The position numbers and the translations under genes are program-made. The notes under the pieces were generated by a model. The model did no database searches. It had not been told where the DNA came from and saw only the letters and a list, made by a program, of their open reading frames with translations. Of a DNA stretch of 64,000 nt, positions 10,503 to 62,486 are shown in pieces. The stretch is from NCBI RefSeq assembly GCF_055900595.2, contig NZ_CM148325.1. One strand, given 5' to 3'. The stretch's first letter is position 1, and each line of letters starts with the position of its first letter.

Positions 10503-10507
10503 TCAGC

Positions 10508-10540
10508 TAAACCCCGGCCATGTGCCGGGGTTTCTCTTTA
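10508..10540. terminator. Bidirectional terminator-like hairpin between convergent obgE and dacB
   Basis: aaaccccggcc-atgt-gccggggttt palindrome flanked by A-run and T-run. Confidence 0.5.
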
Positions 10541-11976: not shown

Positions 11977-12094
11977 AATCTCGCGCTAACAACCTGGAAT
12001 CGAGCCGTCATACTACGGCGCAACGCCCTATAAAGTAAACGATGACCCTGCGGGAACTTCAGGGTAAAATGACTATCAAAATGTGAATTGCAGC

Positions 12095-12128
12095 TGACCT
12101 GGGACTTGTACCCGGGTCGGTATTTTTT
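12095..12128 (+). promoter_or_regulatory. Terminator-like hairpin plus T-run inside the greA leader (candidate GraL-type attenuator)
   Basis: gacctggg...cccgggtc stem followed by ttttttt, about 100 bp upstream of greA start. Confidence 0.4.
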
Positions 12129-18780: not shown

Positions 18781-18867
18781 GCCGAGGTGGTGGAATTGGT
18801 AGACACGCTACCTTGAGGTGGTAGTGCCCAATAGGGCTTACGGGTTCAAGTCCCGTCCTCGGTACCA
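18781..18867 (+). tRNA. leuU: tRNA-Leu (anticodon GAG)
   Basis: GCCGAGGTGGTGGAATTGGTAGACACGCTACCTTGAGGTGG...GGTACCA; cloverleaf with long variable arm; directly downstream of secG. Confidence 0.95.
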
Positions 18868-18906: not shown

Positions 18907-19140
18907 TTTATATCCCCGCATTTTATTGGCTGGATAACGAGCCCCCTCAACTCCTCTCTCTTTGCCTCCTGACTCCGCATAAATCCTTCAAAATAAGATC
19001 TGAATCACTTTTGTTTGGTAGAGCATATAAGCTAAGTGTAAACATTTTTTCAAAATGATATAGATCAGGACTTCAGTTTTTCTAATGTATAAAATCGCAC
19101 GCCGTCGATATTTACTCTGTTCTTATCTACGGGTTTGGGG

Positions 19141-20736
19141 ATGGCTGCACATAACGTATTTCGAAAAATTAAAAATAACTGGCTTATAATTTTTTGTGTA
19201 ATTATTTTTTCTCTGATTAATATCATTGCTTCTTCAGGATCACATCTGGTTCATCGAACACTTTTCTTTGTGCTTTTTATCCTTGTTATAAAACGCACAG
19301 CGTCTTTCCCTTTACGTTTATTATTTGGTATCCCAGTTATGCTGTTGGCTGCTGCGGATCTCTGCATCAGCCTCTATGCATGGTGTACCTTCGGCACCAG
19401 TTTCAATGATGGCTTTGCGATAAGCGTTTTACAAAGTGATCCAGATGAGATTACAAAGATGCTGGGGCTTTATATTGTTTATTGCATTATTTTCCTTGCC
19501 CTGTTCGCACTCTTTTTATCCTCGGTAATAAAATATGATGTTTCGCTACCGGGAAAAAAAATCACAGTGACGTTGTTGCTGATTCTGATTGCGATAAGCT
19601 TATTTTCTTCAGTCAAGTTTGCCCTTAAAGATAAAAAAACAAAGAAAACGGTAGATCCTTATATTGTGGCATCCCGATTCGCAACATATACACCATTTTT
19701 CAACTTAAATTATTTCGCTTTAGCCGCAAAGGAATACCACAGGCTGATGGCCATTGCTGACAAAGTGCCAGGCTATCAATTAGAACTAAGCGATAATGGC
19801 ATCGATGATTATGTATTAATTGTAGGGGAGTCAGTAAGGGCCTCGAATATGTCCATCTATGGGCATAACAGATCGACAACGCCACAGCTCGAAAAACAGA
19901 AGGAGCGTATTAAGCTTTTTACTCAGGCGATAAGCGGAGCGCCTTATACTGCGTTAGCCGTTCCTCTTACTTTAACTGTGGATACTGTATTTGATCACGA
20001 TATCCAGCATTACCCTGACAACATCATTAATATGGCTAATCAGGCTGGGTTTGACACATACTGGCTTAGTGCTCAAGCTGCATTCAGACAGAACGGGACT
20101 GCTGTTGCCAGTATTGCGATGCGAGCGAAAGAAAGAGTCTATGTCAGAGGATATGACGAATTGTTGCTTCCGCATCTGGCTGAGGCATTAAATAAAAAAT
20201 CGCCAAATAAGAAACTGATTGTTCTCCATCTGGTTGGCAGTCATGAACCTGTTTGCGCCACATATCCAGAAGCCAAAGCTGTGTATTATCCATTGGATAA
20301 TCAGGATGCCTGTTATGACAACTCAATTCATTACACCGATAGCATTTTAGGGCAGGTCTTTGCGCTGCTTAAAAATAAGCGAGCCTCGGTTATGTATTTT
20401 GCTGACCATGGGCTTGAACGCGATCCAACGGCAAAACATAGCTATTTCCACGGTGGGAAGAAACCTAGTCAGGAAGCTTATCATGTACCGATGTTTATCT
20501 GGTACAGCCCAATGCTCGGTGAGAACGTTGATCGTTCGACAGTAACTGATATTTTTTCCACTGCTTATAACGACTATCTTATCAATGCGTGGATGGGAGT
20601 TACCCGACCAGAACAACCTAAAACACTTAAAGACGTGATCTCTCACTATCAGGGGGAATCGCGGGTTATTGACGGAAGCCATGAAATGTTTGATTACCGG
20701 GAACTAAGACGAAATTTTAATGCGGACAAGCAGTAA
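19141..20736 (+). CDS. yhbX: Putative phosphoethanolamine transferase-like inner membrane sulfatase-family protein YhbX
   Basis: About 531 aa ORF with hydrophobic N-terminal half and sulfatase/EptA-like C-terminal half; position between leuU and argG matches yhbX; start uncertain (ATG 19141 or TTG 19135); visibly AT-rich. Confidence 0.8.
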   Translation: MAAHNVFRKIKNNWLIIFCVIIFSLINIIASSGSHLVHRTLFFVLFILVIKRTASFPLRLLFGIPVMLLAAADLCISLYAWCTFGTSFNDGFAISVLQSDPDEITKMLGLYIVYCIIFLALFALFLSSVIKYDVSLPGKKITVTLLLILIAISLFSSVKFALKDKKTKKTVDPYIVASRFATYTPFFNLNYFALAAKEYHRLMAIADKVPGYQLELSDNGIDDYVLIVGESVRASNMSIYGHNRSTTPQLEKQKERIKLFTQAISGAPYTALAVPLTLTVDTVFDHDIQHYPDNIINMANQAGFDTYWLSAQAAFRQNGTAVASIAMRAKERVYVRGYDELLLPHLAEALNKKSPNKKLIVLHLVGSHEPVCATYPEAKAVYYPLDNQDACYDNSIHYTDSILGQVFALLKNKRASVMYFADHGLERDPTAKHSYFHGGKKPSQEAYHVPMFIWYSPMLGENVDRSTVTDIFSTAYNDYLINAWMGVTRPEQPKTLKDVISHYQGESRVIDGSHEMFDYRELRRNFNADKQ

Positions 20737-22470: not shown

Positions 22471-22547
<77 letters not shown>

Positions 22548-22669
22548 CTTTCCCTTAGAGTCCTTTTTCAAATATACTGTGAAGACTTCGGCCTTCGTAG
22601 TGGGATTTGAAAAAATCCTTCTGGAAAGTGCTCCAGACCGCAGTTGCGGTTATAGGGTTCAGTTATATA

Positions 22670-22694
22670 AAGCCCCGATTTATCGGGGTTTTTT
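22670..22694 (+). terminator. Terminator/attenuator-like hairpin between metY and rimP
   Basis: aaagccccgatt-tatcggggtttttt. Confidence 0.5.
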
Positions 22695-22753
22695 GTTATC
22701 TGACTACAGAATAACTGGGCTTTAGGCCCTTTTTTTATGTCTTGGGGGTGGGC

Positions 22754-27418: not shown

Positions 27419-27435
27419 GGTTTTTAGGGTTCTAT

Positions 27436-27510
27436 GCGGGATAAGGCGTTTACGCCGCATCCGGCATGGATTGCCTGATGCGACGCTGGCGCATCTTATC
27501 AGGCTACGTG
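27436..27510. repeat. REP (repetitive extragenic palindrome) elements between infB and rbfA
   Basis: gcgggataaggcgtttacgccgcatccggc... and ...gcctgatgcgacgctggcgcatcttatcaggc, typical REP sequence. Confidence 0.55.
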
Positions 27511-28978: not shown

Positions 28979-29344
<366 letters not shown>

Positions 29345-29360
29345 TTCTTGCGAGTTTCAG

Positions 29361-29387
29361 AAAAGGGGCCTGAGTGGCCCCTTTTTT
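29361..29387 (+). terminator. rpsO intrinsic terminator hairpin
   Basis: aaaaggggcc-tgag-tggcccctttttt. Confidence 0.65.
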
Positions 29388-29589
29388 CAAACTGACGGCA
29401 GCAATTCACTGGAAACTAATGTATTGTTGCTATGAATGATCTTCCGTTGCAGAGGTTCGCGCGGCTAATGAGAGGCTTTACCCACATTGGGCTGGGTTAG
29501 GGTTGTCATTAGTCGCGAGGATGCGCAGAAGATCGGGTATTAACACCAGTGCCGTAAGGTGCTGTCTAAGAAAGAGAAAGGATATTACA

Positions 29590-43673: not shown

Positions 43674-43848
43674 GTCGGATGCGGCGTAAACGCCTTATCC
43701 GACCTACGGTTTGCATCGTTGTAGGCCTGATAAGACGCGGCAAGCGTCGCATCAGGCAACGGCAGTCGGATGCGGCGCAGGCGCCTTATCCGACCTACGG
43801 TTTGCATCGTTGCAGGCCTGATAAGACGCGGCAAGCGTCGCATCAGGC
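43674..43848. repeat. Tandem BIME: two near-identical 84-bp REP-pair units at 91-bp period
   Basis: Unit 1 43674-43757 and unit 2 43765-43848, each gtcggatgcggcg...gccttatccgacctacggtttgcatcgttg.aggcctgataagacgcggcaagcgtcgcatcaggc. Confidence 0.7.
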
Positions 43849-47511: not shown

Positions 47512-48375
47512 ATGAAACAACACCAATCGGCGGATAATTCTCAGGGCCAGCTTTACATTGTACCGACGCCAATCGGCAATCTGGCAGATATCACCCAGCG
47601 TGCGTTGGAGGTTTTACAGGCCGTTGATCTGATTGCCGCCGAGGATACGCGTCATACCGGTTTACTGCTGCAACATTTTGGAATTAACGCCAGGTTGTTC
47701 GCCTTGCACGACCATAACGAACAACAGAAAGCCGAAACGTTACTGGCGAAGCTGCAGGAAGGGCAAAACATTGCGCTGGTGTCCGATGCCGGAACGCCAC
47801 TGATTAACGATCCCGGCTATCATCTGGTGCGTACCTGCCGAGAAGCGGGGATTCGCGTGGTGCCACTACCGGGGCCGTGTGCTGCTATCACTGCATTAAG
47901 TGCTGCGGGTTTACCATCCGATCGTTTTTGTTATGAAGGTTTCCTGCCTGCCAAATCAAAAGGCCGTCGTGATGCGCTAAAAGCCATTGAAGCGGAGCCG
48001 CGTACGCTGATTTTTTATGAATCCACCCACCGTCTGTTAGATAGCCTGGAAGATATCGTTGCTGTGCTGGGTGAGTCCCGTTACGTGGTGCTGGCGCGTG
48101 AGCTCACCAAAACCTGGGAAACCATTCACGGCGCGCCCGTTGGCGAGCTGCTGGCGTGGGTCAAAGAAGATGAAAACCGTCGCAAAGGTGAAATGGTGCT
48201 GATTGTTGAAGGCCATAAAGCACAGGAAGAAGACTTACCTGCCGATGCCCTGCGCACGCTGGCGTTGTTACAGGCTGAGCTTCCGCTGAAGAAAGCGGCG
48301 GCGCTGGCAGCAGAGATTCACGGCGTGAAAAAAAACGCGCTGTATAAGTATGCGCTGGAACAGCAGGGGGAGTGA
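47512..48375 (+). CDS. rsmI: 16S rRNA C1402 2'-O-methyltransferase RsmI
   Basis: 287 aa ORF divergent from lpoA. Confidence 0.9.
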
Positions 48376-48379
48376 TTAC

Positions 48380-48412
48380 AGGCGTCGCAGCAAGAATAGA
48401 GCTGCAACGCCT
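48380..48412. terminator. Palindrome between convergent rsmI and agaI (candidate bidirectional terminator)
   Basis: ggcgtcgcagc-aagaataga-gctgcaacgcc imperfect inverted repeat filling the 49-bp gap. Confidence 0.4.
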
Positions 48413-48424
48413 ACACCGGGCGAT

Positions 48425-49192
48425 TTAACGACGACACATCTCATCAATCATGCATGTGAAATAGTTATGCAGCCATAAAAACGAAGCCGGGATAGCGGTA
48501 GAGACTTTAGCCGTGAGAAAACGTTCTGTCGCATCCTGCTTTCCTTCGCCAGTTATCAGTAACAAAACTTCGCGGGCATTGAGAATATCCTTCAGGCCTA
48601 AAGTGATCCCACGAGTCACGGGGCGACCCGCGGTTTTTAACATCTCATGTTGTTGCGTTCTGGTATCAAGCTGGCTGATATGGCTTGCTGGTTGCAGACT
48701 TTCTCCCGGTTCGTTCAGCCCAAGATGGCCGTTTTTTCCCAATCCGAGAACGCATAAATCCAGACCGCCTTTGCGCGCAATCAGGTTCGTTACCCGTTCG
48801 CACTCTGTCTCATTTATCTCTTCAGAGCGAAAGCTGATGAGCTGGTCTTCACGTAGCCCCAGCGGCTGCACGATATGCTGTTGAAGGAAAGTTTCGCAGG
48901 TGCCAGGCATCGTTAATGGCAGATCCACCCATTCGTCGAGCTTCACGAAGGTCAGTTGGCTGACATCAACCTGCTGCTGGTGGATTTTTTCTACCAGATA
49001 ATGATACGTCAGTAATGGCGTGGCTCCGGTCGCCAGGCAAATCACGGCATCCGGTTTGCTACGGATCACGGCCAATAAATATTCGCTGGCACGTTCACTT
49101 AACGCCGTATAGTTTTCAACTTGTTGAAGGGTTTGCACAGGATGAAATTCCTTTAGTAAAGAGGCACCACCAGACGCAGTGCCTCGTTCCAT
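48425..49192 (-). CDS. agaI: Galactosamine-6-phosphate deaminase/isomerase AgaI (NagB family)
   Basis: 255 aa ORF; last gene of the agaS-kbaY-agaBCDI block; ATG directly follows agaD stop. Confidence 0.85.
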   Translation of the reverse strand: MERGTASGGASLLKEFHPVQTLQQVENYTALSERASEYLLAVIRSKPDAVICLATGATPLLTYHYLVEKIHQQQVDVSQLTFVKLDEWVDLPLTMPGTCETFLQQHIVQPLGLREDQLISFRSEEINETECERVTNLIARKGGLDLCVLGLGKNGHLGLNEPGESLQPASHISQLDTRTQQHEMLKTAGRPVTRGITLGLKDILNAREVLLLITGEGKQDATERFLTAKVSTAIPASFLWLHNYFTCMIDEMCRR

Positions 49193-49984
49193 TTACAAAA
49201 TGCCGAATGCGGAACAAACAATAGAGAGCACAAAAGTCACGCCGATTAACAGCACCGGATGCGCTTTTTTCACCCGCAGGAAGTAATACATCAGCAGGGT
49301 GTAGGCCATCGGTAAAATGTTCGGGAAGACTTTATCGAAGAAATCCTGCTGCAGCGCGACGCTGTGGGTACTGTCGATGGCAAACGATGTCACCACGTTA
49401 ATATGCACATACGAAGCGATCAGCCCGCCGATTACCGTGATCCCGAGGATGGTTGCCGAACGAGCAATCATCTGCGAGTTCTCTCGCACTTTATCGATCG
49501 CCTTCACGCCGACTGAATAACCGACGTGGGTCCAGCCGACGCGCAGGAAGAAGATAAGCAGGTAAACGGCGAAAAATAGAATCGGCCCCAGCAAGTTTCC
49601 CTGGCTGGCAAATGATGAGCAAATTCCCGCCATAATCGGCAATAAGGTAAACCAGAAAATCGCATCGCCAATCCCGGCGATTGGGCCAAACAGTGCCACT
49701 TTGAGGCCTTTAATGGTGTCGCGGTTTTCTCCTTTTTCTTCCATCGAAATTAATAACCCCATCAGGAATCCGACCAGATTCGGGTGGGTATTAATAAATT
49801 CGAGATTATCTTTCATCGCCGCGCTTAGGCCCGGTTTGTCGTCCTTATAAATCTTTTTCAGGATCGGCAACATCGCCCAGGTAAAACCTCCCGCCTGCAT
49901 CCTTTCGTAGTTAAAGCTCGCTTGCAGGAGTGACGAACGAAAGCCCAGACGGGTGATATCTTTTTTACTGATTTCAGATCCCAT
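49193..49984 (-). CDS. agaD: PTS galactosamine-specific EIID component AgaD
   Basis: ATG at 49984 gives MGSEISKKDITRLGFRSSLLQASFNYERMQ..., 263 aa; ORF-track start 50131 is an extension inside agaC. Confidence 0.85.
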   Translation of the reverse strand: MGSEISKKDITRLGFRSSLLQASFNYERMQAGGFTWAMLPILKKIYKDDKPGLSAAMKDNLEFINTHPNLVGFLMGLLISMEEKGENRDTIKGLKVALFGPIAGIGDAIFWFTLLPIMAGICSSFASQGNLLGPILFFAVYLLIFFLRVGWTHVGYSVGVKAIDKVRENSQMIARSATILGITVIGGLIASYVHINVVTSFAIDSTHSVALQQDFFDKVFPNILPMAYTLLMYYFLRVKKAHPVLLIGVTFVLSIVCSAFGIL

Positions 49985-50777
49985 TGCTGTAGTCCTCTTC
50001 TTCATTTTTACTGGCAACGGGCTGCGGTTGCGCTTGCTGCCGGGATTTCGCATTGAAAAACTCATACACCGCAAAGCCTGCACCCAGTACGGCAACTGGC
50101 AACAGGTTGCTGACCTGGATGTAGCAAACAAACAAGAAACCGGCGATCAGGTAAGGGATATATTGCGCTTTGAACATCACGCGCAGCAGCAGGCCAAAAC
50201 CAACGGCAGGCAGAATGCCGCCAGCCACTTCAAAGCCGTGGGTCAGCCAGGCGGGCATCGCTTTCACCAGCGCCTGCATCGCCCCTTGCGCCAGGTAAGT
50301 ACAGAGGAAAGCAATCACCGCATACGCTGAAGCGACGATGAGCATCGTTGTCCAGTTAAGTCGGGAAAACGCTGCTGTATCCGCCTCTTTCGCACATTTA
50401 TCGGCTTTGGTCATAAATAATGAGAATGCCGAATAGAAGAACAGAATGACGTACTGCATTAACAAACTAAACGGCAGACCAAGGCCAATTGCCGTTTTGG
50501 CATCGACGCCAGTAGACCACGCAATGACGGTAGTCATCAGACCCGCCATAATTGGGTTGGGCGGCTGTACACCACCTGCGGGGGTTAATCCGGCGAAAGC
50601 CAGTTCTGTTAGGCCACCGGTAATTAAGCCAGTCTGAATATCACCGAGAATAGCACCTGTAAGGGTACAAACGATTATCGGGCGGAATAAAAATAAGGCT
50701 TCCAGCCAAAAATCAATCCCCAGAACGAAAACTAACGCCGCCAGGGATAATCCCTGAATTAGGGTTATTTCATGCAT
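49974..50777 (-). CDS. agaC: PTS galactosamine-specific EIIC component AgaC
   Basis: 267 aa mannose-family EIIC. Confidence 0.9.
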   Translation of the reverse strand: MHEITLIQGLSLAALVFVLGIDFWLEALFLFRPIIVCTLTGAILGDIQTGLITGGLTELAFAGLTPAGGVQPPNPIMAGLMTTVIAWSTGVDAKTAIGLGLPFSLLMQYVILFFYSAFSLFMTKADKCAKEADTAAFSRLNWTTMLIVASAYAVIAFLCTYLAQGAMQALVKAMPAWLTHGFEVAGGILPAVGFGLLLRVMFKAQYIPYLIAGFLFVCYIQVSNLLPVAVLGAGFAVYEFFNAKSRQQAQPQPVASKNEEEDYSNGI

Positions 50778-50816
50778 TTTTATTACCTCAAACCAGTATT
50801 AAGGCGATTTTTGAAT

Positions 50817-51293
50817 TTAGTCAGGGATTTGTTCTTTTTGATCGCCGGGGACGTCCTGAATAAAAATATTCACACCGCGTTGTTTAATAAAGCGTAAGTC
50901 CGCGAGATCTTGATCGTCGATATAAACTTTACTGCTGATTTGCTTTTTACCTTCCGAGAAATGCATATTGCCGACGTTGACATCTTTCAGGTCAATGCCA
51001 CCTTCTATCAATTTACGTACCGTTTGCGGCGTACGGCAAATCAAGAAGATTTTCTGATGCGGTGCAGCTTTGCCGATGACGTTAATGGTTTTTTCGATAG
51101 TAAAGAAACGAATGCCAAAGCCGTAGGTTTCCGCGGTAATACCCATTAATTTTTGTTGAATATCATCGTTAGCGACAACATCATCCACGACTACCAGCAG
51201 ATTTGCACCGATGGTAGATGTCCAGGTCACACCAACCTGACCGTGAACCAGACGGTTATCAATACGGGTTAAGAGAATATTTGGACTGCTCAT
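50817..51293 (-). CDS. agaB: PTS galactosamine-specific EIIB component AgaB
   Basis: 158 aa mannose-family EIIB. Confidence 0.9.
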   Translation of the reverse strand: MSSPNILLTRIDNRLVHGQVGVTWTSTIGANLLVVVDDVVANDDIQQKLMGITAETYGFGIRFFTIEKTINVIGKAAPHQKIFLICRTPQTVRKLIEGGIDLKDVNVGNMHFSEGKKQISSKVYIDDQDLADLRFIKQRGVNIFIQDVPGDQKEQIPD

Positions 51294-51459
51294 TGTGTAA
51301 TCCTCACCATAAAGTTGAATAATATAATTTTTTTAAATATATTATTGTTGCGATATTTTACTGATGTATTTATTAAGGTTTAGTTATCTCCTTTACCATT
51401 AAGGCACTCCCCGATATTAATCGGGAAGTACATTGGGATAAATCATAAAAAACTAATGA

Positions 51460-52332
<873 letters not shown>

Positions 52333-53487
52333 TTATGCCTGCCACGGATGAATGATTACGCCTTGCACCACACGGTTAACGGTGCCGCTGGCTGATGGGG
52401 TATCCGGCGTATTGCCCATGTGCAGCGACTGCATCAGTGCAAACGTCTGGGCGTACATCAGGAAGCAAAATGCCTGCTCAACGTCGATAAAGTGACGTGA
52501 CGGCGGCAGGATGATATGTGGACCGGCGGTAATAACGTCGTTGCCTTCCGCGGCGATGGCGATTACGCGCATTGCCTGGTTGTCACGGCGGAGTTCTGCC
52601 AGCAGATCAAGATCATACTGACGCGTATAGGGGTGGCTGGAGACAAACACCACCACCAGCGTTTCGTCATCGACCAGTGATTTAGGCCCATGACGGAATC
52701 CGGTCGGGGAATCATAAAAGGCCGCCAGTTTACCCGCCGTCAGTTCCAGTACTTTCAGCGCCGACTCGCGTGCTGCGCCCTGTAAGCCACCGCTGCCGAG
52801 ATAAACGATCCGTTTCCACGGTGCGTAACCAAACACACCTTCGCTGAAATCGCCCAGTGAGGTCAGGATCGCCTGGCAACGATCCGCTACGTCGCGGAAG
52901 GTCTGGCTATTGATTGTCTCAGGTGCGAAAACCGCGAGGCAGCTGGCCATCATAGTGGTAATGCTGCTTGTCATCGCAAAGCCGCGATCGTGCGTTTCTG
53001 CGGGCATCAGCAGGGCAAACGCGTTGTCGCTGTTGATCGCGTTTTGGTAAAGAGCGCCCGCTTCGTTGCAGGTGATCGGCAGGTGATAGCATTCCGGTAC
53101 AAACTGATTCGCCAGTTCCACGGCGGCGACGCTTTCCGGGCTGTTGCCAGATCGACCGAAGGAGATCAACAGCAGTGGATGCGCTGGGTTCAGGTATTCC
53201 ATTGGATTGGTGACCAGATCGGTGGTCGGTACGGCGCTGACGTTTTTGCCGGTATGGCTGGCAAGCCACGGCGCGATGATGTCACCGATAAATGCCGAGG
53301 TTCCGGCTCCGGTCAGAATGATCCGCAGATTCTCTTTGCGCAGTAACGGTTCAAGGAAGTTATTGAGAGCTGTACGTAACGCGTCGATGTTGGTGAGTGA
53401 ACGGATCCATGCGCGAGGCTGATGGCGGATCTCTTCTTCAGTCCATGTGCCGGTGGTGGCGGCCGCTGGGGTGTAATTTTCTGGCAT
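52333..53487 (-). CDS. agaS: SIS-domain sugar-phosphate isomerase/deaminase AgaS
   Basis: 384 aa ORF. Confidence 0.9.
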   Translation of the reverse strand: MPENYTPAAATTGTWTEEEIRHQPRAWIRSLTNIDALRTALNNFLEPLLRKENLRIILTGAGTSAFIGDIIAPWLASHTGKNVSAVPTTDLVTNPMEYLNPAHPLLLISFGRSGNSPESVAAVELANQFVPECYHLPITCNEAGALYQNAINSDNAFALLMPAETHDRGFAMTSSITTMMASCLAVFAPETINSQTFRDVADRCQAILTSLGDFSEGVFGYAPWKRIVYLGSGGLQGAARESALKVLELTAGKLAAFYDSPTGFRHGPKSLVDDETLVVVFVSSHPYTRQYDLDLLAELRRDNQAMRVIAIAAEGNDVITAGPHIILPPSRHFIDVEQAFCFLMYAQTFALMQSLHMGNTPDTPSASGTVNRVVQGVIIHPWQA

Positions 53488-53539
53488 AACTCAATCCTTA
53501 GTCTGATGAACTTGACTTCCGGCATTGCAGGTTTCGCTT

Positions 53540-53660
53540 GCCTTTCGTTTCATTTCACTTGGTGATTCGTTTCGTTGATTAAAATCTATAGAAAAGAAAT
53601 CGAAAGTTCAATGGAGAAAAAAGAAATAAAACGAAATTTGTGATCGTTGAAAGAAAAGAC
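53540..53660 (-). promoter_or_regulatory. agaS promoter region with iterated AgaR operator-like motifs
   Basis: Repeated CTTTCGTTTCATTTC / TTCGTTTCGTT / AAAGAAATCGAAAG / AAAACGAAAT motifs just upstream of agaS. Confidence 0.4.
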
Positions 53661-53837
53661 AAGGGAAGATTAAAGGATTGCGTGATGACGTCGCTATGTG
53701 TACCGATTGCTGGAAGCGGCGTACCGTAGAGCGGATAAGACGCGCCAGCGTCGCATTCGACACCACTGCACAGATTAAAACGAAAGAAAAAGAAAGGCCT
53801 TACGGGGGAAGTGAAGGCCCAATAAAGGAGCAAACCA

Positions 53838-54971
53838 TCAAAACGAAGCTAATTGACCCTGAATCCAGATTTGTTGCACATACAGTCCGCTATTCAGCGC
53901 AACGACGCTGGCGCGTTTGCCCGGTTTAAGTGATCCCAGAACACCATCAACACCCAGCATTCGCGCCGGATGCAGCGATGCCATATGGATGGCTTCCGCA
54001 GGCGTTACGCCCGTCAACTCGACCATGTTGCGCACTGCCGCATCGACAGACAGCGTACTGCCCGCCAGCCCACCGGACGCGGTACGGACAACGCCACCGC
54101 GCATCTGCACTTCTTCACCACATAACGTATATTGACCATCCGGCATCCCGGCTGCCTGCATCGCATCAGTTATCAGCACTATTCTCTCTTTCGCACAGCA
54201 ACAACACAGCGACATCGCCGCCGGATGTACATGATGCCCATCGGCTATCAATTCCAGCCAGGCGCGCTTGTCCGTTAAACCCGCGCCAACCATTCCCGGT
54301 TCGCGGTGATGTAATCCTGTCATCCCGTTATAGCAATGCACCAGGCCGTCTGCGCCAGCATCAAATACGGCGCGGGTTTGTTGCCAGGTTGCTGCGCTAT
54401 GTCCCAGCATTACCCGCACGTTCTGCTGTTTAAGATGACGAATGGCTTGTAACGCGCCCGTTTTTTCCGGTGCCAGCGCCACCACGCGCAAGGTATGCCG
54501 TGAAACAGCAATCAATTGATCCAGCTCGGCAATTTCCAGCTCGCGAAACAGCTCCGGCGGATGTGCGCCTTTATTCTGCGGCGTGAAGTACGGTCCTTCG
54601 AGATAACTCCCCAGCACTTGCGCACCAGGTCCACCGCGCTGGCAGCGTAGAGCAATACGTTCCAGCGCCGCATGAATGGTATTAAGCGGCGCGGTTACGG
54701 TAGTCGGCAACCAACTGCCGACACCTTCCCGTGCCTTGTGCATTGCCAGCTTGTCGAGCACATCCGGCGCGTCATCCATAACATCAACGCCCGCACCACC
54801 GTGTACATGGGTATCGATATAAGCGGGGCAGAGCAGTTCCGCATCGCGTTCAGTCACGCCCACTGGAATCGGTTCGATTGCTGCAATTACACCGTCAGCA
54901 ATATGCAACTGATGATCATCAAGCCAGCCCTCCTCAGTCAGCAGTCTTCTGGCGCGCAGAACGTGTGTCAT
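53838..54971 (-). CDS. agaA: N-acetylgalactosamine-6-phosphate deacetylase AgaA (full length)
   Basis: ATG at 54971 gives MTHVLRARRLLTEEGWLDD..., about 377 aa NagA-like amidohydrolase; uninterrupted. Confidence 0.85.
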   Translation of the reverse strand: MTHVLRARRLLTEEGWLDDHQLHIADGVIAAIEPIPVGVTERDAELLCPAYIDTHVHGGAGVDVMDDAPDVLDKLAMHKAREGVGSWLPTTVTAPLNTIHAALERIALRCQRGGPGAQVLGSYLEGPYFTPQNKGAHPPELFRELEIAELDQLIAVSRHTLRVVALAPEKTGALQAIRHLKQQNVRVMLGHSAATWQQTRAVFDAGADGLVHCYNGMTGLHHREPGMVGAGLTDKRAWLELIADGHHVHPAAMSLCCCCAKERIVLITDAMQAAGMPDGQYTLCGEEVQMRGGVVRTASGGLAGSTLSVDAAVRNMVELTGVTPAEAIHMASLHPARMLGVDGVLGSLKPGKRASVVALNSGLYVQQIWIQGQLASF

Positions 54972-55402
54972 ATTCCTTCCTCGACCGGACATTCTTCATG
55001 GCAGCGGCCTAACTCGTCTACCAGACTGGTCAGCCCACGGTGTCCACACTCCAGCGCCTGCACACGGAATTCTTCACCGCTTAACCCTTCGCGCTCCAGC
55101 ACCATTTCCAGTAACAGTTGCAAATTGGTGCCGGTGATCACTTCATAGCCCGGTTTTTGCATCGCCAGCGTTGAAGCCACGCGAAACGGTGTGCCGCCCA
55201 GCAAATCTGTCAGAAAAACAATGCCGTCTTCACAATCCAGTTGGGCGATGGCTTCTTCAAGCTGCGATGTAAGCAGCGCAGTGCTTGAGGTTTCCGGAAA
55301 ATCAATGGCGATAAACTGCGACTGCTCGCCGAGGATTTGCTTCATTGCTTTTTCCATGCCGCTGGCAAATCCGCCATGCCCTGTCAAAATAATACTTAAC
55401 AT
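54968..55402 (-). CDS. agaF: PTS N-acetylgalactosamine/galactosamine EIIA component AgaF
   Basis: 144 aa mannose-family EIIA. Confidence 0.85.
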   Translation of the reverse strand: MLSIILTGHGGFASGMEKAMKQILGEQSQFIAIDFPETSSTALLTSQLEEAIAQLDCEDGIVFLTDLLGGTPFRVASTLAMQKPGYEVITGTNLQLLLEMVLEREGLSGEEFRVQALECGHRGLTSLVDELGRCHEECPVEEGI

Positions 55403-55419
55403 CTAATACCTCATTGTAT

Positions 55420-56298
55420 TTAAAGGAAATGACAGAATTTACCGACGATGCCAAGAACCACGGTAACCGCAATCAGGCGCAGCGGACTCCAGCCGCGGCG
55501 TACCAGCCAGAACATGGTCAGGGTGTAGACCAGCGGTAAGAAGGCAGGCATCAGTTTGTCGATAACGTCAGCCTGCAGCTTAACCACTGCGTCGCCCGCC
55601 GTGATTTCCAGCGTGGTGCTTAAACGAACATAGGTTGCCACCAGCGCGCCGATTACCGTCATCCCAACGATTGACGCAGCATGGCCGACTTTTTTGGTAT
55701 TCGCTTTAATGAGTGGAATCGCCGCCACGCCCATGCGGTAAGCATAATGCGCCAGACCAAAACGCAGCCCCAGGTGTACCACGTTGAACAGCACAATAAA
55801 GACGACTGCGCCAAGAATAGAGCCTTGCAATGCCAGACTGGCTCCAATCCCGCCACAAATCGGCAGTAACGTTAGCCAGAACATGGCATCGCCAATCCCG
55901 CCGAGCGGCGCACCGACGGCAATTTTGGTGCTCTGAATACTGTTAACGTCCTGCTTAGAACGCTCCATCGCAAGGATAATGCCGATAACAAACGTCACCA
56001 GAAACGGATGGGTATTGAAGAAACCCATATGTCCCTTCATGGCGCGCGCCAGGTCGCGTTTATTAGTGTGGATCTTTTTCAGAGCAGGCAGCAGACCGTA
56101 CAACCAGCCGGAAGCCTGCATACGTTCGTAGTTAAAAGACGCTTGTAACAGCATGGAACGCCAGGCGACGCGGTTGATATCTTTTTTCGTCAGCTCTGCG
56201 CCAATGCTCTGATCTTCATACACGTTTTCATTGACGCCTGTCAGCAGTGTCTCTTCATTTTCGCTGACGTTCGGCAGGGTGGTTTGATTAGATGCCAT
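55420..56298 (-). CDS. agaE: PTS N-acetylgalactosamine-specific EIID component AgaE
   Basis: ATG at 56298 gives MASNQTTLPNV..., about 292 aa; 11-bp overlap with agaW like the agaC/agaD junction. Confidence 0.85.
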   Translation of the reverse strand: MASNQTTLPNVSENEETLLTGVNENVYEDQSIGAELTKKDINRVAWRSMLLQASFNYERMQASGWLYGLLPALKKIHTNKRDLARAMKGHMGFFNTHPFLVTFVIGIILAMERSKQDVNSIQSTKIAVGAPLGGIGDAMFWLTLLPICGGIGASLALQGSILGAVVFIVLFNVVHLGLRFGLAHYAYRMGVAAIPLIKANTKKVGHAASIVGMTVIGALVATYVRLSTTLEITAGDAVVKLQADVIDKLMPAFLPLVYTLTMFWLVRRGWSPLRLIAVTVVLGIVGKFCHFL

Positions 56299-57067
56299 CT
56301 TCAAATTCCTCTTTCTGTGCCGCAGGTTGAGTCGGTTCAGGAGATTTACGCAGCAAGTCGATCAGCGCCATCGCCAGCGCGGCGGCAGCAATAGCCAGCA
56401 CCGGTAACTTGAGCCAGGCTGCGGCAACAAAGCCCAGGATGAAGTAGGGGATGTAGACGTTTTTCATCATGATTTTCAGCAGCACGGCAAAACCGATTGC
56501 TGGCATGATGCCACCCGCGACGCCGAGGCCGTCGATTAATCGTTGCGGCAGGACATCAATGATGGTTTTGGCATGTTCTGCGCCGAAGTAGATAGGCAGG
56601 AAAGCGCAGAGAAAATAGAACGTGCCGAGTGCCAACAGTGCCAGATAGTTCACGCGTTCAATGCCGCGTGTATCGGCGTTCTCCGCCATCCGGTCGCAGC
56701 GGGACATTACGCCAGACATCACCGAGAACAGGAAGGTAATCCCCATCTGTACTGCGACAGCGAAAGGTACGGCGACACCGACCGCGACATCCGGTTTCAC
56801 GCCAGTAGTAATGGCAAACGCCGTGCCGACGATAGTTCCGATAATCACGTTAGGCGGCTGTGCGCCCGCCAGTGGTGCCAGCCCCATCCACACCAGTTCC
56901 AGCGTACCGCCGGTTAAAATACCGGTATGCAGATCGCCAAGCACCAACCCAACTAACGGGCCGAGGACCACCGGGCGGTGCATATGGGTCAAGCCGTTAA
57001 ACATATCCAGGCCAGCGATAAAGGCGATAATGCCCAACGCAAATGCCTGCAACAGACTGATTTCCAT
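56288..57067 (-). CDS. agaW: PTS N-acetylgalactosamine-specific EIIC component AgaW (full length)
   Basis: 259 aa mannose-family EIIC, paralogous to AgaC; uninterrupted. Confidence 0.85.
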   Translation of the reverse strand: MEISLLQAFALGIIAFIAGLDMFNGLTHMHRPVVLGPLVGLVLGDLHTGILTGGTLELVWMGLAPLAGAQPPNVIIGTIVGTAFAITTGVKPDVAVGVAVPFAVAVQMGITFLFSVMSGVMSRCDRMAENADTRGIERVNYLALLALGTFYFLCAFLPIYFGAEHAKTIIDVLPQRLIDGLGVAGGIMPAIGFAVLLKIMMKNVYIPYFILGFVAAAWLKLPVLAIAAAALAMALIDLLRKSPEPTQPAAQKEEFEDGI

Positions 57068-57077
57068 AATGAATCCC

Positions 57078-57551
57078 TCAAAGTAATTTAAAGAGGTCCA
57101 CAGCAGGTTCTGTCGGAACGCCCTGAACGAAGCATTCCACCCCAGCGGCTTTCAGGTCGTTAAATGCCGCGATATCGCTCGCATCCACAGAAACCGTTTT
57201 GGCAATTTGCTGCTTGCCATTGGCATAGTGCATGTTGCCAACGTTAATGCGACTCACCGGGACCCCACCTTTAACCAGCATCAGGAAATCGGCAGGTGTT
57301 TTACAAACCAGCAGAATTTTCTGCCGATCGGCGGCGCGGTGGATGTTGTCGATCACTTTTTGCAGCGTCCAGAAACGTACGGCGATCCCTTCAGCCAGTA
57401 CCATTTCCATCAGGTTTTGTTGTACCGGATCTTCGGCAACCTCATCATTGGCTACCAGCACCAGATTTGCCCCCGCAAATCCGACCCACTGAACGCCGAC
57501 CTGACCGTGAATCAAGCGTTCATCAATCCGGCTTAAAACAATATTTGGCAT
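57078..57551 (-). CDS. agaV: PTS N-acetylgalactosamine-specific EIIB component AgaV
   Basis: ATG at 57551 gives MPNIVLSRIDERLIHGQVG..., 157 aa. Confidence 0.85.
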   Translation of the reverse strand: MPNIVLSRIDERLIHGQVGVQWVGFAGANLVLVANDEVAEDPVQQNLMEMVLAEGIAVRFWTLQKVIDNIHRAADRQKILLVCKTPADFLMLVKGGVPVSRINVGNMHYANGKQQIAKTVSVDASDIAAFNDLKAAGVECFVQGVPTEPAVDLFKLL

Positions 57552-57573
57552 AGCGTGTTCCTCTTTGTTTTGC

Positions 57574-58854
57574 TTATTGGCCTTCACAGGCTGTGTGGTA
57601 CTGCGCCAGGATGTCCTGAATATGGTTGATAATGAGTTCCCGTGGCGTTGGCTGCAGCTCGCCGGAGCGAACTTTCACGTATTGCAGCGGCAGGTACTGA
57701 CTGATGAGCGGCAGCGGAATTGGTGCATCCGCCAGGTTACGAACCAGATGGGCGAAAGCGTCATCAATCTGGCTGTCCGGCCAGTAATAGCGCACGCGAT
57801 CCGAGTAGCTATAACCACGCGCCAGACGACGCGCGTTGCCATCACCGTGGTAGTGGCTTTGCCAGTATTCCGGGCGGTCGAGCATCACGTTTTCCAGCAC
57901 CTGACGCAGACCGGAACAGGCTTTTGCTGGCACCAGTTCTTCTTCAATCGCCGCCAGAGAGAACAGAGCTTCACGCAGGGCGAAGGTGAGCGCCGGACCA
58001 ACTTTCAGAATGGCAAAGTGGTCAATCACCAGCTGGCGCAGCGATTGCGGCGTTTGGTAATCGGTAGAGTGCGCTTCGAAAATCAGCGTTTCGTAGTTTT
58101 CGACCATCTGGCTTAAGGCGGTCGCTTTAGCTGGCTGATAATCAATAACGTTGGTGTGATCGAATTCGACGCCGGGTTGTACCACCAGAGCAATGATGCG
58201 TGGCCAGATGGCATTCAGACCTTGCTTTTCAAAGGCGTGACGATGGGCTTCCAGCGTGGCGCGGGCGGCATCCGGCGTAGTGACCGCCAGCTCGCTTAAG
58301 GTTTCATGCGCGCCGCCAGGTACCGGCACTTCGGTACCAATGACATACACCAGATCGGCTTCGCCAAAGTGTTCACGGCAGGTTTCTTCCGCGACTTTAG
58401 CCAGTCGGGCGGCGCGTTCAGCCACGATGTCATCGGTTAAGGGAACCGGATCGTCCTGACAGGACATGCTGCAATCAAGGTGAATTTTTTTGAATCCTGC
58501 CGCCACGTAGCTTTTAATCAAATCATCGGCATTTGCCATCGCCTGAGCTGCAGGCAGGTTTTGCCAGCGGTTTGGCCCCAGATGATCGCCACCCAGAATC
58601 AACGCGTCTTGTGGGAAATTCAATGAGTCGGCGAGCTGACAAACAAAGCCGCGAAAATCGGCGGGTGTCATTCCGGTATAACCACCGAACTGGTCCACCT
58701 GATTGGATGTCGCTTCAATCAGTAACGGTGTTTGGTTTACACTGGCGTAGCGGATTGCAGCTTCCAGCACCAGCGGGTGTGCGGAACAAACGGCATAAAT
58801 CCCATTTGTTTTGCCCTCTTTGTGCTGCCTCACCATTTCTGTCAGATGTTTCAC
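57574..58854 (-). CDS. kbaZ: Tagatose-bisphosphate aldolase non-catalytic subunit KbaZ (AgaZ)
   Basis: 426 aa from GTG at 58854 ([22 protein letters not shown]...); start uncertain, ORF-track start is 58920. Confidence 0.8.
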
Positions 58855-58929
58855 TTTCCTCTCCAGTTCAGATTGCTGCGATATTAATCTTTCGTTTTGT
58901 TTCAGTTGATACTGCGTCATGGTGAGATA

Positions 58930-59095
58930 AAAATAAAACGAAAGATAATAGTTTTCTGATCTGATTCACAAAAGAAACATAATGAAAGTCACTGAAACGA
59001 GAGTAGCTTGCGTCAATGGGCAAGGTGGGCTTGCATTTGCTCAATAGAAAGGCGTTAATAGGCAAAACGAAATGAAACGAAAGTTTTACGAAAGG
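58930..59095. promoter_or_regulatory. Divergent kbaZ / agaR promoter region with AgaR operator-like repeats
   Basis: Iterated AAACGAAAG, AAAGAAACATAATGAAAG and AAAACGAAATGAAACGAAAGTTTTACGAAAGG motifs. Confidence 0.4.
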
Positions 59096-59102
59096 ACTTA
59101 CT

Positions 59103-59912
59103 ATGAGTAATACCGACGCTTCAGGCGAGAAGCGAGTGACAGGCACCAGCGAGCGACGAGAACAAATCATTCAGCGCCTGCGACAGCAAGGGAGTGTGCA
59201 GGTTAACGATCTGTCGGCATTGTATGGCGTATCTACTGTGACGATCCGCAACGATCTGGCGTTTCTGGAAAAGCAGGGGATCGCTGTGCGGGCCTATGGC
59301 GGCGCGTTGATCTGCGATAGCACGACGCCGTCAGTCGAGCCATCAGTGGAAGATAAAAGCGCGCTGAACACTGCGATGAAACGCAGCGTTGCGAAAGCTG
59401 CCGTTGAGTTGATTCAGCCAGGTCATCGGGTGATCCTCGATTCCGGGACCACCACGTTTGAGATTGCTCGTCTGATGCGCAAGCACACTGACGTAATTGC
59501 GATGACCAATGGTATGAACGTAGCCAATGCACTGCTGGAAGCAGAAGGCGTTGAACTTCTTATGACCGGCGGGCATCTGCGGCGTCAGTCGCAATCTTTT
59601 TACGGCGATCAGGCTGAACAATCGCTACAAAATTACCACTTCGATATGCTGTTTCTTGGCGTAGATGCTATTGATCTGGAGCGCGGCGTCAGCACGCATA
59701 ATGAAGATGAAGCCCGTTTAAACCGTCGGATGTGCGAAGTTGCGGAACGGATCATCGTGGTCACCGATTCCAGTAAGTTCAACCGTTCCAGTTTACATAA
59801 GATCATTGATACTCAACGTATCGACATGATCATTGTTGATGAAGGCATTCCTGCGGATAGTCTGGAAGGACTGCGAAAGGCTGGGGTTGAAGTGATTCTG
59901 GTCGGGGAGTGA
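59103..59912 (+). CDS. agaR: DeoR-family transcriptional repressor AgaR
   Basis: 269 aa ORF with N-terminal HTH and DeoR C-terminal domain. Confidence 0.9.
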
Positions 59913-59966
59913 GAAATGGTGCCCGCTGGTCAACACCAATGCGTTCGGCGGGCATTGTGAACACCA

Positions 59967-60431
59967 TCAATGGTTTTCTTCTGTCTCTTGGGTGAGGCTT
60001 TCCCAGTCGGCAGGAGGATGTCCTCTTTTTAACATTTTACTGAATACGGTATAGGCATCTGTTTTTTTACCGTAGGTGCGCAGCGTGTTTTCATCGTTCA
60101 TCCATCCCAGAATGATGACTTTCTCTTTTTCACTGTAACGAAAGAAGAGACGATAGCGACCAGCACCAAATTTTACCCGTGACCAGTCTTTATTTTTCCC
60201 AGAGCCTAACGACTTGCCATGACGGAATGCCGGTGATGATGGATTGACCGTGATATGCTCCTCAATCACTTTATGGACCACCGCCAATAACTTTGTGGCA
60301 GCTTTTCTCTGATAATTTTCAGGATCTTTTCCCTTTAATGCCTCGACTTCGGCAACTAAAGCATCGTAGGTTTCCTGAAAACAGGGATGAGCATATAGCG
60401 CCCAACCATTAACCCTTTGTGGAAAATCCAT
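59967..60431 (-). CDS. yhaV: Toxin YhaV (ribosome-dependent mRNA interferase)
   Basis: 154 aa ORF MDFPQRVNGWALYAHPCFQETYDALVAEVE...; start overlaps prlF stop. Confidence 0.85.
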   Translation of the reverse strand: MDFPQRVNGWALYAHPCFQETYDALVAEVEALKGKDPENYQRKAATKLLAVVHKVIEEHITVNPSSPAFRHGKSLGSGKNKDWSRVKFGAGRYRLFFRYSEKEKVIILGWMNDENTLRTYGKKTDAYTVFSKMLKRGHPPADWESLTQETEENH

Positions 60432-60766
60432 TATTCGTCGTCGCCAATCTCATCGTCAATGTTGACGTCCATGCCAGCGACAAGTTTCTTTCCTTGTTGA
60501 ATGTCGAATGGACGAGTTTTTTGCGGGTTGTTCTGGATATCTGCATCCAGAAAACGCAAAAATGCATTCATAGTATGATCCTCCTGTTCATCTCCCAGTC
60601 GGCACATAAATACTTGCCCACCAGGCAGAATTTCGTAATGAATGCTGTCCAGGCCTGGCTTCAGTTTTAAGGCCTCACGCACTGGCGCGGGGATAGTTGT
60701 TTGTCCGCGTATCGTGACCTTTGATTCAGTGGTCAGTACAGCGTTAGAGCGAGCATTAGCGGGCAT
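60431..60766 (-). CDS. prlF: Antitoxin PrlF (SohA), AbrB/SpoVT-type
   Basis: 111 aa ORF with acidic C-terminus; immediately upstream of yhaV. Confidence 0.85.
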   Translation of the reverse strand: MPANARSNAVLTTESKVTIRGQTTIPAPVREALKLKPGLDSIHYEILPGGQVFMCRLGDEQEDHTMNAFLRFLDADIQNNPQKTRPFDIQQGKKLVAGMDVNIDDEIGDDE

Positions 60767-60914
60767 TATTTACTGTCCTTTTACAGCCTGTTTTCTGCTC
60801 AAATTATAAGCTTGAACTAAGGTAATGCAAATGCATTATTAATGGATGTGTGGACTTTAAACAATAAAAACATGGCACTAAGGCCATGTTTTGCGAGGGA
60901 CGTTCCAAAAGAAA

Positions 60915-62486
60915 TCAGGTCACCGGTGCCGGGTTAAACACCGCCAGCTGGTTATGCAGTCCCCATTGATCTGAGAAGGTTTTCTTCTTCCCGCTGGCGA
61001 CGTCGAGAATAAAGTGGAACAGCTTCCAGCCCACTTCTTCTATGGTTTCTTCGCCGGTGGCGATGGTGCCTGCGTTGATATCCATTAAGTCAAACCAACG
61101 GTTTGCCAGTTCGGTGCGGGTCGCCATTTTAATGACGGGTACTACCATCAGGCCATATGGCGTGCCGCGACCGGTCGTAAACACTTGCACGGTAATCCCT
61201 GATGCCACCTGTTGCGTGCCACAGACAAAATCGCTGGCTGGCGTCGCGGCGTAAATTAATCCGCGTTTAGTCGGGCGTTGACCGGGCGATAGCACTTCAA
61301 CAATTGCGCTTTTACCCGATTTAGCAATGGAGCCGAGAGCCTTCTCCACTACGTTTGCCAGACCGCCTTTCTTGTTGCCCGGAGAAGGGTTGGCGCTGCG
61401 GTCGGTTTTTCCCATATTCAGATAGTTATCGTACCACTCCATCTCTTCCAGCAGACGCTTGCCGACCTCTTCGTTCACTGCGCGCGGCGTCAGCAGATGG
61501 ATCGCGTCACGCACTTCTGTGACTTCCGAGAACATCACTGTTGCACCGCAGCGCACCAGTAGATCAGACGCATACCCAACCGCTGGATTTGCCGTTACGC
61601 CAGAAAACGCATCGCTGCCACCGCACTGCATGCCGACAACCAGTTCTGAAGCCGGACAGGTTTCTCGCTGACGTTGATTCAGTTTTTGTATATGGCGTTC
61701 GGCGACCTGCAAAATATCCTCGACCATGGACTGAAAACCGACATGCTTTTCATCCTGCAAACTGACAATGCTGGCGCTTTCTACTGGAATAGCTTGCACA
61801 TCATCCGTTCCAGTCAGCAGGCGCTCAGGCTGCAACTTTTCACAACCCAGACCAATCACCATTACTTCGCCGCCAAAGTTAGGGTTCAGCGAAATATTGT
61901 GAATGGTACGGATAGGCACAACTGCCGCCGGTGCGTTAATCGCCACGCCACAACCGTACAAATGATTCAGCCCCACCACGCCATCGACGTTCGGGTATTT
62001 CGGTAGCAGATCGCGTTCAATGATTTTTACTACGTAGTCCACCACGCCTGCCACACAGTGGACGCTGGTGGTGATGCCGAGCAGGTTTTTGGTGCCCACG
62101 CTGCCATCAGCATTGCGATAGCCCTCAAAGGTGTATCCTTCCAGCGGCGGTAAGGGTTCCGGGACTTTGGTTGCCAGTGGCAGTGTGTGTAACGGCGGCG
62201 CTTCCGGTAGTACAACCATTGATTCGTCGATCCAGCTTCCGCGTGGGATTGCGCGCACGGCGTAACCAATCACTTCACCATAACGAATAATTTCACCATT
62301 AGCCGGAATGTCCAGCAATGCGACTTTATGCCCCTGGGGAATATGTTCAATTAATTCCAGCCCATCCGGAAAACGCGTTCCTGCTTTCAGGCCATTATCA
62401 TTAACAATAATTGCCACATTATCTGTGTCATGAACTTTTATATAAAACGCAGTTGGCGTTTCTTGTCTGATTTCGATGTTGGCCAT
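60915..62486 (-). CDS. garD: Galactarate dehydratase
   Basis: 523 aa [31 protein letters not shown]... Confidence 0.9.

Follow-up and report, generated by a model that had tools for sequence, protein, structure and literature searches.

A complete 13-gene aga/kba cluster, probably a regulon of the Escherichia coli C type, in an Escherichia contig

Does the aga/kba locus, which in Escherichia coli C provides for the utilization of N-acetylgalactosamine (GalNAc) and galactosamine (GalN), occur in its complete form in a given strain, or is it shortened by a deletion, as in the K-12 reference? We addressed this question for a stretch of 64,000 nucleotides (referred to below as the window) of contig NZ_CM148325.1 from NCBI RefSeq assembly GCF_055900595.2, in which a preliminary description had recognized a complete cluster of 13 aga/kba genes. 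The list of open reading frames (ORFs) and their translations revealed 13 uninterrupted frames within region 48425-59912, which is bounded by the stop codons of agaI and agaR. The agaR gene (plus strand) is divergent from the genes kbaZ-agaVWEFA, which are followed by agaS-kbaY-agaBCDI (all on the minus strand). The genes are given below with the size of the encoded proteins in amino acids (aa), the score against the matching NCBIfam model and, for some of them, the number of residues identical in E. coli C; PTS denotes the phosphotransferase system.

48425-49192, minus strand: agaI, galactosamine-6-phosphate isomerase-like protein, 255 aa; NF007291, 468 bits (cut-off 271).
49193-49984, minus strand: agaD, galactosamine PTS subunit IID, 263 aa; NF007359, 456 bits (cut-off 400); 262/263 identical.
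49974-50777, minus strand: agaC, galactosamine PTS subunit IIC, 267 aa; NF007289, 408 bits (cut-off 300); 266/267 identical.
50817-51293, minus strand: agaB, galactosamine PTS subunit IIB, 158 aa; NF007288, 281 bits (cut-off 180).
51460-52320, minus strand: kbaY, class II tagatose-1,6-bisphosphate aldolase, catalytic subunit, 286 aa; NF009375, 666 bits (cut-off 542); 285/286 identical.
52333-53487, minus strand: agaS, AgaS-family sugar isomerase, 384 aa; TIGR02815, 631 bits (cut-off 529); 375/384 identical.
53838-54971, minus strand: agaA, N-acetylgalactosamine-6-phosphate deacetylase (NagA family), 377 aa; TIGR00221, 284 bits (cut-off 226); 365/377 identical.
54968-55402, minus strand: agaF, PTS subunit IIA common to the GalNAc and GalN transporters, 144 aa; NF040761, 218 bits (cut-off 130).
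55420-56298, minus strand: agaE, GalNAc PTS subunit IID, 292 aa; NF040760, 618 bits (cut-off 500); 292/292 identical.
56288-57067, minus strand: agaW, GalNAc PTS subunit IIC, 259 aa; NF040757, 411 bits (cut-off 300); 258/259 identical.
57078-57551, minus strand: agaV, GalNAc PTS subunit IIB, 157 aa; NF008508, 320 bits (cut-off 180).
57574-58854, minus strand: kbaZ, tagatose-bisphosphate aldolase, non-catalytic subunit, 426 aa, GTG start codon; NF012002, 897 bits (cut-off 707); 418/426 identical.
59103-59912, plus strand: agaR, DeoR-family repressor of the regulon, 269 aa; NF007316, 577 bits (cut-off 351), and NF040755 (AgaR), 465 bits (cut-off 260).

Each of the 13 frames contains a single stop codon, located at its end. 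Each of the 13 products has a match to an NCBIfam equivalog or subfamily model that extends from end to end, with scores above the curated cut-offs and E-values ranging from 1e-65 to 1e-270, and such full-length equivalog matches exclude the possibility that these are chance ORFs. AgaA was scored against the general NagA model TIGR00221 only; the NCBIfam library contains no AgaA-specific model. The mechanically delimited ORFs are longer in the case of agaA (384 aa) and agaE (294 aa), because their start codons were taken further upstream. Between the window and the complete RefSeq genome of E. coli E200086 (NZ_CM128605.1) there are 4 single-nucleotide polymorphisms in 12,501 bases, and the annotation of that genome contains the same 13 coding sequences with no pseudogene flags.

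The ORFs, the annotation of E200086 and the NCBIfam matches thus bear out the completeness of the cluster. The lengths previously given for AgaW, AgaE, AgaF and AgaA (259, 292, 144 and 377 aa, respectively) proved to be exact, as did the placement of their genes between agaV and agaS; when the four frames were inspected for a frameshift or a premature stop codon, each was found to contain only the terminal stop. Judged from these data, the cluster would represent the canonical aga/gam regulon in its complete form, of the E. coli C type, a reading to which we assign a probability of roughly 0.9. An intact aga cluster is already known and does not constitute a new system.

Comparison with named strains supports this assignment. 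E. coli C122, which by its name we take to be an E. coli C strain, presumably sharing the phenotype published for E. coli C (utilization of GalNAc and GalN, i.e. Aga+ Gam+), contains all 13 genes with identical order and orientation. Protein identity to the window ranges from 94.1 to 100%, AgaE and AgaR (269 of 269 residues, also in K-12) being fully conserved, and protein lengths are equal in 12 cases out of 13, with the exception of AgaI (255 aa here versus 251 aa). The chromosomal position is also shared, since in both cases the cluster adjoins yhaV-prlF, and operator-like motifs are present in the same two intergenic regions. At the DNA level the two loci are approximately 4% divergent, with a synonymous divergence (dS) of 0.16. 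The aga/gam regulon of E. coli C was reportedly treated by Brinkkötter et al. in 2000. It has been described as a set of 13 genes of ~12.3 kb, conferring the Aga+ Gam+ phenotype (Hu et al. 2013, PMC3668189).

The O157:H7 strain FRIK2533 retains agaVWEFA, but its agaI is flagged as containing an internal stop and its agaC is annotated as short, whereas both genes are intact in the window. The AgaW, AgaE, AgaD and AgaR proteins of O157:H7 are identical to those analyzed here. In strains EDL933 and Sakai, amber mutations are present at codon 8 of agaC and codon 72 of agaI, and EDL933 is Aga+ Gam- (PMC3668189). The earlier statement that both E. coli C and O157-type strains keep the full set therefore stands for C122 (13 of 13 genes) and for agaWEFA of O157:H7, but not for agaC and agaI of the latter, which are defective. 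Because of these defects, the window matches the E. coli C type and not the O157 type. All 13 genes are also intact in the phylogroup B2 strain ATCC 25922, with ~4% nucleotide divergence from the window. The locus is syntenic with those of the K-12, C, O157 and B2 strains, being located between yhaV-prlF and rsmI.

The transporters encoded by the cluster have the IIA/IIB/IIC/IID architecture of the mannose-family PTS (EII-Man, type 4; e.g. ManXYZ). They differ from the ManXYZ type in that two IIB/IIC/IID sets share one free-standing IIA; GalNAc and GalN are assigned as their substrates on the basis of published work. AgaV and AgaB (TIGR00854), AgaC (TIGR00822) and AgaD (TIGR00828) score above the cut-offs of the subfamily models for mannose/fructose/sorbose, while AgaF, AgaW and AgaE score strongly, but just below the respective cut-offs (TIGR00824, TIGR00822 and TIGR00828), and above those of their own equivalog models. 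The paralogy of agaBCD and agaVWE is visible at the nucleotide level as direct repeats of 22-86 nt (71-80% identity), placed ~6.2 kb apart (49200-51300 versus 55420-57560). The repeat search returned only this paralogy and the operator motifs.

The difference between the window and K-12 was mapped by BLAST and by base-by-base inspection of the junction. The aga locus of MG1655 (b3131-b3141) contains orthologs of agaR, kbaZ, agaV, agaS, kbaY and agaBCDI, encoding proteins of the same lengths with the exception of AgaI (251 aa versus 255 aa here), and the flanking synteny on the agaR side is the same. Two aligned blocks, corresponding to positions 48468-54396 and 56692-61500 of the window, show ~96% identity by BLAST. 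MG1655 lacks positions 54397-56701 (2305 bp), i.e. agaF and agaE in their entirety, together with the 5' part of agaA and the 3' part of agaW. When the junction was mapped onto E. coli C122, a gap of the same size (2305 bp) was obtained, with a breakpoint microhomology of 6-10 bp around GGTCGCAGCG. In the annotation of MG1655, agaW (133 codons) and agaA (167 codons) are pseudogenes, and agaE and agaF are missing.

The K-12 deletion of roughly 2.3 kb, said in the preliminary description to remove agaE and agaF and to truncate agaW and agaA, is thus confirmed at 2305 bp, in agreement with the annotation of MG1655 and with PMC3668189, and its description as a known polymorphism is correct. The Aga- Gam- phenotype of K-12 results from this 2.3 kb deletion (Hu et al. 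2013, PMC3668189), and AgaF, which the deletion removes, is the shared EIIA(Aga/Gam) (PMC3668189). The claim that the deletion makes K-12 unable to use GalNAc is therefore correct but incomplete, since the use of galactosamine is lost as well.

How common the intact state is was assessed with positions 54200-56900 of the window, a query spanning the K-12 deletion, in 5426 complete E. coli genomes. In 4930 of them (~91%), at least 80% of the query was covered. A further 385 genomes gave partial matches only, and those sampled show the K-12 pattern (15% coverage in two pieces); 111 genomes gave no match. The intact aga cluster is the rule and K-12 the exception. The intact state, being that of the majority, consequently says little about the source strain beyond its not being K-12-like.

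Sequence identity is more informative in this respect. The entire 64 kb window is 94.8-97.6% identical to K-12. The possibility that the ~4% divergence is local to the aga region, as a result of recombination, was rejected, since identity remains in this range over the whole window. At least 99% identity across the aga region is found in only 8 of the 5426 complete E. coli genomes. Those among the eight that are listed in a 2026 announcement of GEMS stool isolates (strains E200086, E400634, E500002, E600003 and 100117) are assigned there to cryptic clade I (100117 as 'Cryptic'), sequence type (ST) 485 and OND:H45 (PMC13064198). With the nearest genomes typed in this way, the source of the window is placed, by its nucleotide identity, in Escherichia cryptic clade I, as an ST485-like strain that diverges from K-12 by about 4-5%. 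The non-K-12 background proposed earlier has thereby been upheld and narrowed to this lineage. That cryptic clade I carries an intact cluster under strong purifying selection (see below) agrees with the view that the 13-gene form is the ancestral one, the deletion in K-12 representing a derived loss.

The function of the cluster may be outlined by orthology, from what has been published for E. coli C, O157:H7 and K-12, supplemented by general knowledge of the pathway and the protein families. AgaR, a DeoR-family protein, would repress the promoters Pr, Pz and Ps, and GalNAc or GalN would induce the two operons kbaZ-agaVWEFA and agaS-kbaY-agaBCDI. GalNAc would be imported and phosphorylated by the mannose-family PTS composed of AgaV (IIB), AgaW (IIC) and AgaE (IID), and GalN by AgaB, AgaC and AgaD, with AgaF as the single IIA serving both transporters. 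The predicted subsequent steps are (i) the conversion of GalNAc-6-phosphate to GalN-6-phosphate by AgaA, for which NagA could stand in, (ii) the deamination and isomerization of GalN-6-phosphate to tagatose-6-phosphate by AgaS, (iii) the phosphorylation of the latter to tagatose-1,6-bisphosphate by a kinase encoded elsewhere and (iv) its cleavage to dihydroxyacetone phosphate and glyceraldehyde-3-phosphate by KbaY, stabilized by KbaZ. AgaI would be dispensable and its role is uncertain (PMC3668189). Deletion of agaA or agaI leaves growth unaffected, nagA substituting for agaA (PMC3668189), and agaS has been proposed as the gene for the galactosamine-6-phosphate deaminase/isomerase (Hu et al. 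2013, PMC3668189). Following that work, it is proposed that AgaS, and not AgaI, is the deaminase.

Control regions that would fit this scheme are present in the window at the following positions.

53488-53837, minus strand: agaA-agaS intergenic region of 350 bp (published Ps promoter region), read from the sequence.
53539-53562 and 53617-53640: two AgaR-operator-like motifs in the agaA-agaS region, with 0 and 1 mismatch to the consensus, respectively.
58855-59102, no strand assigned: divergent kbaZ/agaR control region (published Pz and Pr promoters), from a motif search and reading of the sequence.
58968-58991 and 59063-59086: AgaR-operator-like motifs in the kbaZ/agaR region, from the motif search.
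58886-58909: third AgaR-operator-like motif, lying just within the part by which the mechanical kbaZ ORF is extended upstream.

The operator consensus applied, WRMMTTTCRTTTYRTTTYNYTTKK, is reportedly that of Ray and Larson (2004). Six matches to this consensus were found in the 64 kb, compared with 0.16 expected by chance, and five of the six are located in the agaA-agaS and kbaZ-agaR regions. The sixth (2624-2647, 3 mismatches) lies in the mla region, far from aga, in T-rich sequence where a match is in all likelihood fortuitous. A REP-like (repetitive extragenic palindromic) GC-rich palindrome, gcgacgctggcgcgtcttatccgctctacgg, is present at ~53730-53760, between agaA and agaS, and lies upstream of the two AgaR-operator-like motifs of that region. 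A putative CRP-like site, TCTGAtctgatTCACA (58955-58970), matching 9 of 10 core bases, was read by eye from the sequence. A scan with Rfam detected no RNA families within the aga cluster. The promoter Ps, which is bound by AgaR, has been placed upstream of agaS, and Pz and Pr in the kbaZ/agaR region (PMC3668189).

With none of the 13 genes interrupted, a GalNAc+ and GalN+ (Aga+ Gam+) phenotype is predicted for the source strain. Such a complete cluster predicts that GalNAc and GalN, amino sugars derived from mucin, can be used, as is usual in E. coli; the cluster also underlines that K-12 is an atypical reference at the aga locus and, beyond correct annotation, has little significance. The alleles known to inactivate the system are absent: residue 91 of AgaF is G, codon 8 of agaC is CAG (Gln) and codon 72 of agaI is CAG. 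In O157:H7 isolates of the spinach outbreak, the substitution G91S in AgaF is responsible for the Aga- phenotype (PMC3668189). Relative to E. coli C, the cluster shows a dS of 0.16 and a nonsynonymous divergence (dN) of 0.006, which gives a dN/dS ratio of ~0.04, with no gene above 0.09. This low ratio indicates that the frames have been maintained by strong purifying selection over substantial divergence. Conserved motifs containing histidine were located in AgaF (TGHG, with H9), AgaV (IHGQV at residue 14, with H15), AgaB (VHGQV at residue 16, with H17), AgaA (HVHG at residue 55) and KbaY (HLDH, AHG and LHGAS). From knowledge of the families, TGHG and xHGQV correspond to the expected phospho-histidine positions, and HVHG is a metal-binding motif.

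Several points weigh against the reading of the cluster as a functional regulon of the E. coli C type: (i) AgaA (12), AgaS (9), KbaZ (8), AgaV (5) and AgaB (5) carry lineage-specific substitutions whose harmlessness cannot be certified; (ii) a single missense mutation, AgaF G91S, is sufficient to abolish the use of GalNAc (PMC3668189); (iii) the C-terminal tail of AgaI differs from that of E. coli C; (iv) the GalNAc and GalN phenotype, of both the strain and its lineage, is a prediction from nucleotide data; (v) the sites counted as AgaR operators are putative, being defined by a consensus reportedly due to Ray and Larson (2004); and (vi) a generic scan of 48300-60000 for sigma-70 promoters and terminators returned 6 promoter-like sites, versus 10.9 in shuffled sequence, and nothing useful for Pz, Ps or Pr. 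With regard to the third point, deletion of agaI had no effect on the use of GalNAc or GalN in E. coli C and EDL933 (PMC3668189).

It may accordingly be asked whether the frames are intact and the cluster nevertheless silent or partly defective, through lineage-specific missense or regulatory changes comparable to AgaF G91S, given that one changed residue of AgaF suffices for an Aga- phenotype (PMC3668189). Compared with E. coli C, 1-12 residues are changed in 11 of the 13 proteins, and non-conservative changes are among these differences (AgaF C86Y, AgaV C112G, KbaZ L160R and E169V, AgaA Q108L). We nevertheless consider such a defect improbable. The dN/dS ratio of ~0.04 across the cluster speaks for maintained function, AgaR and AgaE are 100% identical to their E. 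coli C counterparts, the AgaR-operator-like motifs are retained, and many of the substitutions are common to O157:H7, whose strain EDL933 grows on GalNAc (PMC3668189). AgaF departs from its E. coli C counterpart at a single position, 86, which is Y here and C in E. coli C. As this residue is five positions from G91, it was considered as a candidate damaging change and rejected, because position 86 is hypervariable (R, W, S, T, C or H) in 113 full-length orthologs, in which H9 and G91 are invariant.

A further alternative, less probable still and given very little weight here, is that in this lineage the transporters serve mainly another substrate, with GalNAc/GalN catabolism being secondary. 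A derepressed GalNAc PTS is reported to carry glucose: in a ptsG-deficient E. coli C, evolved agaR mutations led to glucose transport via this system (PMC9628945). There, however, the glucose activity appeared only after AgaR repression had been lost in the ptsG mutant, whereas agaR is intact here and its product identical to the wild type. Moreover, strong purifying selection acts on the catabolic genes just as on the transporter genes, and the sequence gives no hint of an altered specificity. The reading of the cluster as the complete regulon of the E. coli C type, conferring the predicted Aga+ Gam+ phenotype, is therefore retained.

The distal end of the cluster is organized differently from that of K-12 and E. 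coli C. Homology to these strains ends inside agaI, at position 48468, so that the AgaI of the window has a different C-terminal tail of 14 residues and a length of 255 aa, compared with 251 aa for the K-12/C form. The yraHIJK fimbrial operon is absent beside agaI and rsmI follows directly; the two genes are convergent, with 49 bp between their stop codons and a hairpin in the spacer (AGGCGTCGCAGC...GCTGCAACGCCT; region 48376-48468). In K-12 and E. coli C, agaI is followed by yraHIJK, and in the O157 locus it is likewise followed by the first genes of this operon, yraH and yraI. By contrast, the B2 strain ATCC 25922 has the same direct rsmI-agaI junction, lacks yraHIJK and encodes the same 255-aa form of AgaI, with the tail HNHFTCVIDEMCRR in place of HNYFTCMIDEMCRR in the window. 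The direct junction is present in 1822 of the 5426 complete E. coli genomes.

One might speculate that the direct junction and the 255-aa AgaI, found in clade I and B2, are ancestral for E. coli sensu lato, and that the yraHIJK operon of the K-12, C and O157-type strains was inserted later, replacing the last ~13 codons of agaI, or else that the clade I alleles differ in specificity or regulation. We regard this as a long shot. If the arrangement is ancestral, AgaI may originally have been a functional protein of 255 aa, and this might be the reason why its role has been elusive in strains with the 251-aa form or with the amber mutation.

On the opposite side of the cluster, agaR is adjoined, as in K-12, by the type II toxin-antitoxin pair prlF-yhaV (59967-60766); both genes are intact and their products are 97% identical to those of K-12. 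The remainder of the window contains the following features detected with Rfam.

12007-12128: greA leader.
18781-18864 and 22471-22544: two tRNAs.
22636-22736: rimP leader.
27435-27505 and 43724-43795: naRNA4 (REP-derived).
29017-29131: S15 leader.
29360-29531, minus strand: SraG small RNA.

Two further differences from K-12 were observed outside the aga region. Positions 18910-19365, extending from the tRNA-Leu gene (leuU) to the first ~225 bp of a yhbX-like gene, have no match in K-12. The latter gene (19141-20736, plus strand), encoding a phosphoethanolamine transferase, comprises 1596 bp, versus 1626 bp for yhbX of K-12, and its 5' end and upstream region are, by this comparison, replaced relative to K-12. 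Finally, the gap between dacB and obgE is ~40 bp here (10505-10509), whereas K-12 contains ~150 bp more (K-12 positions 3330429-3330579); this additional DNA is probably an intergenic repeat element.

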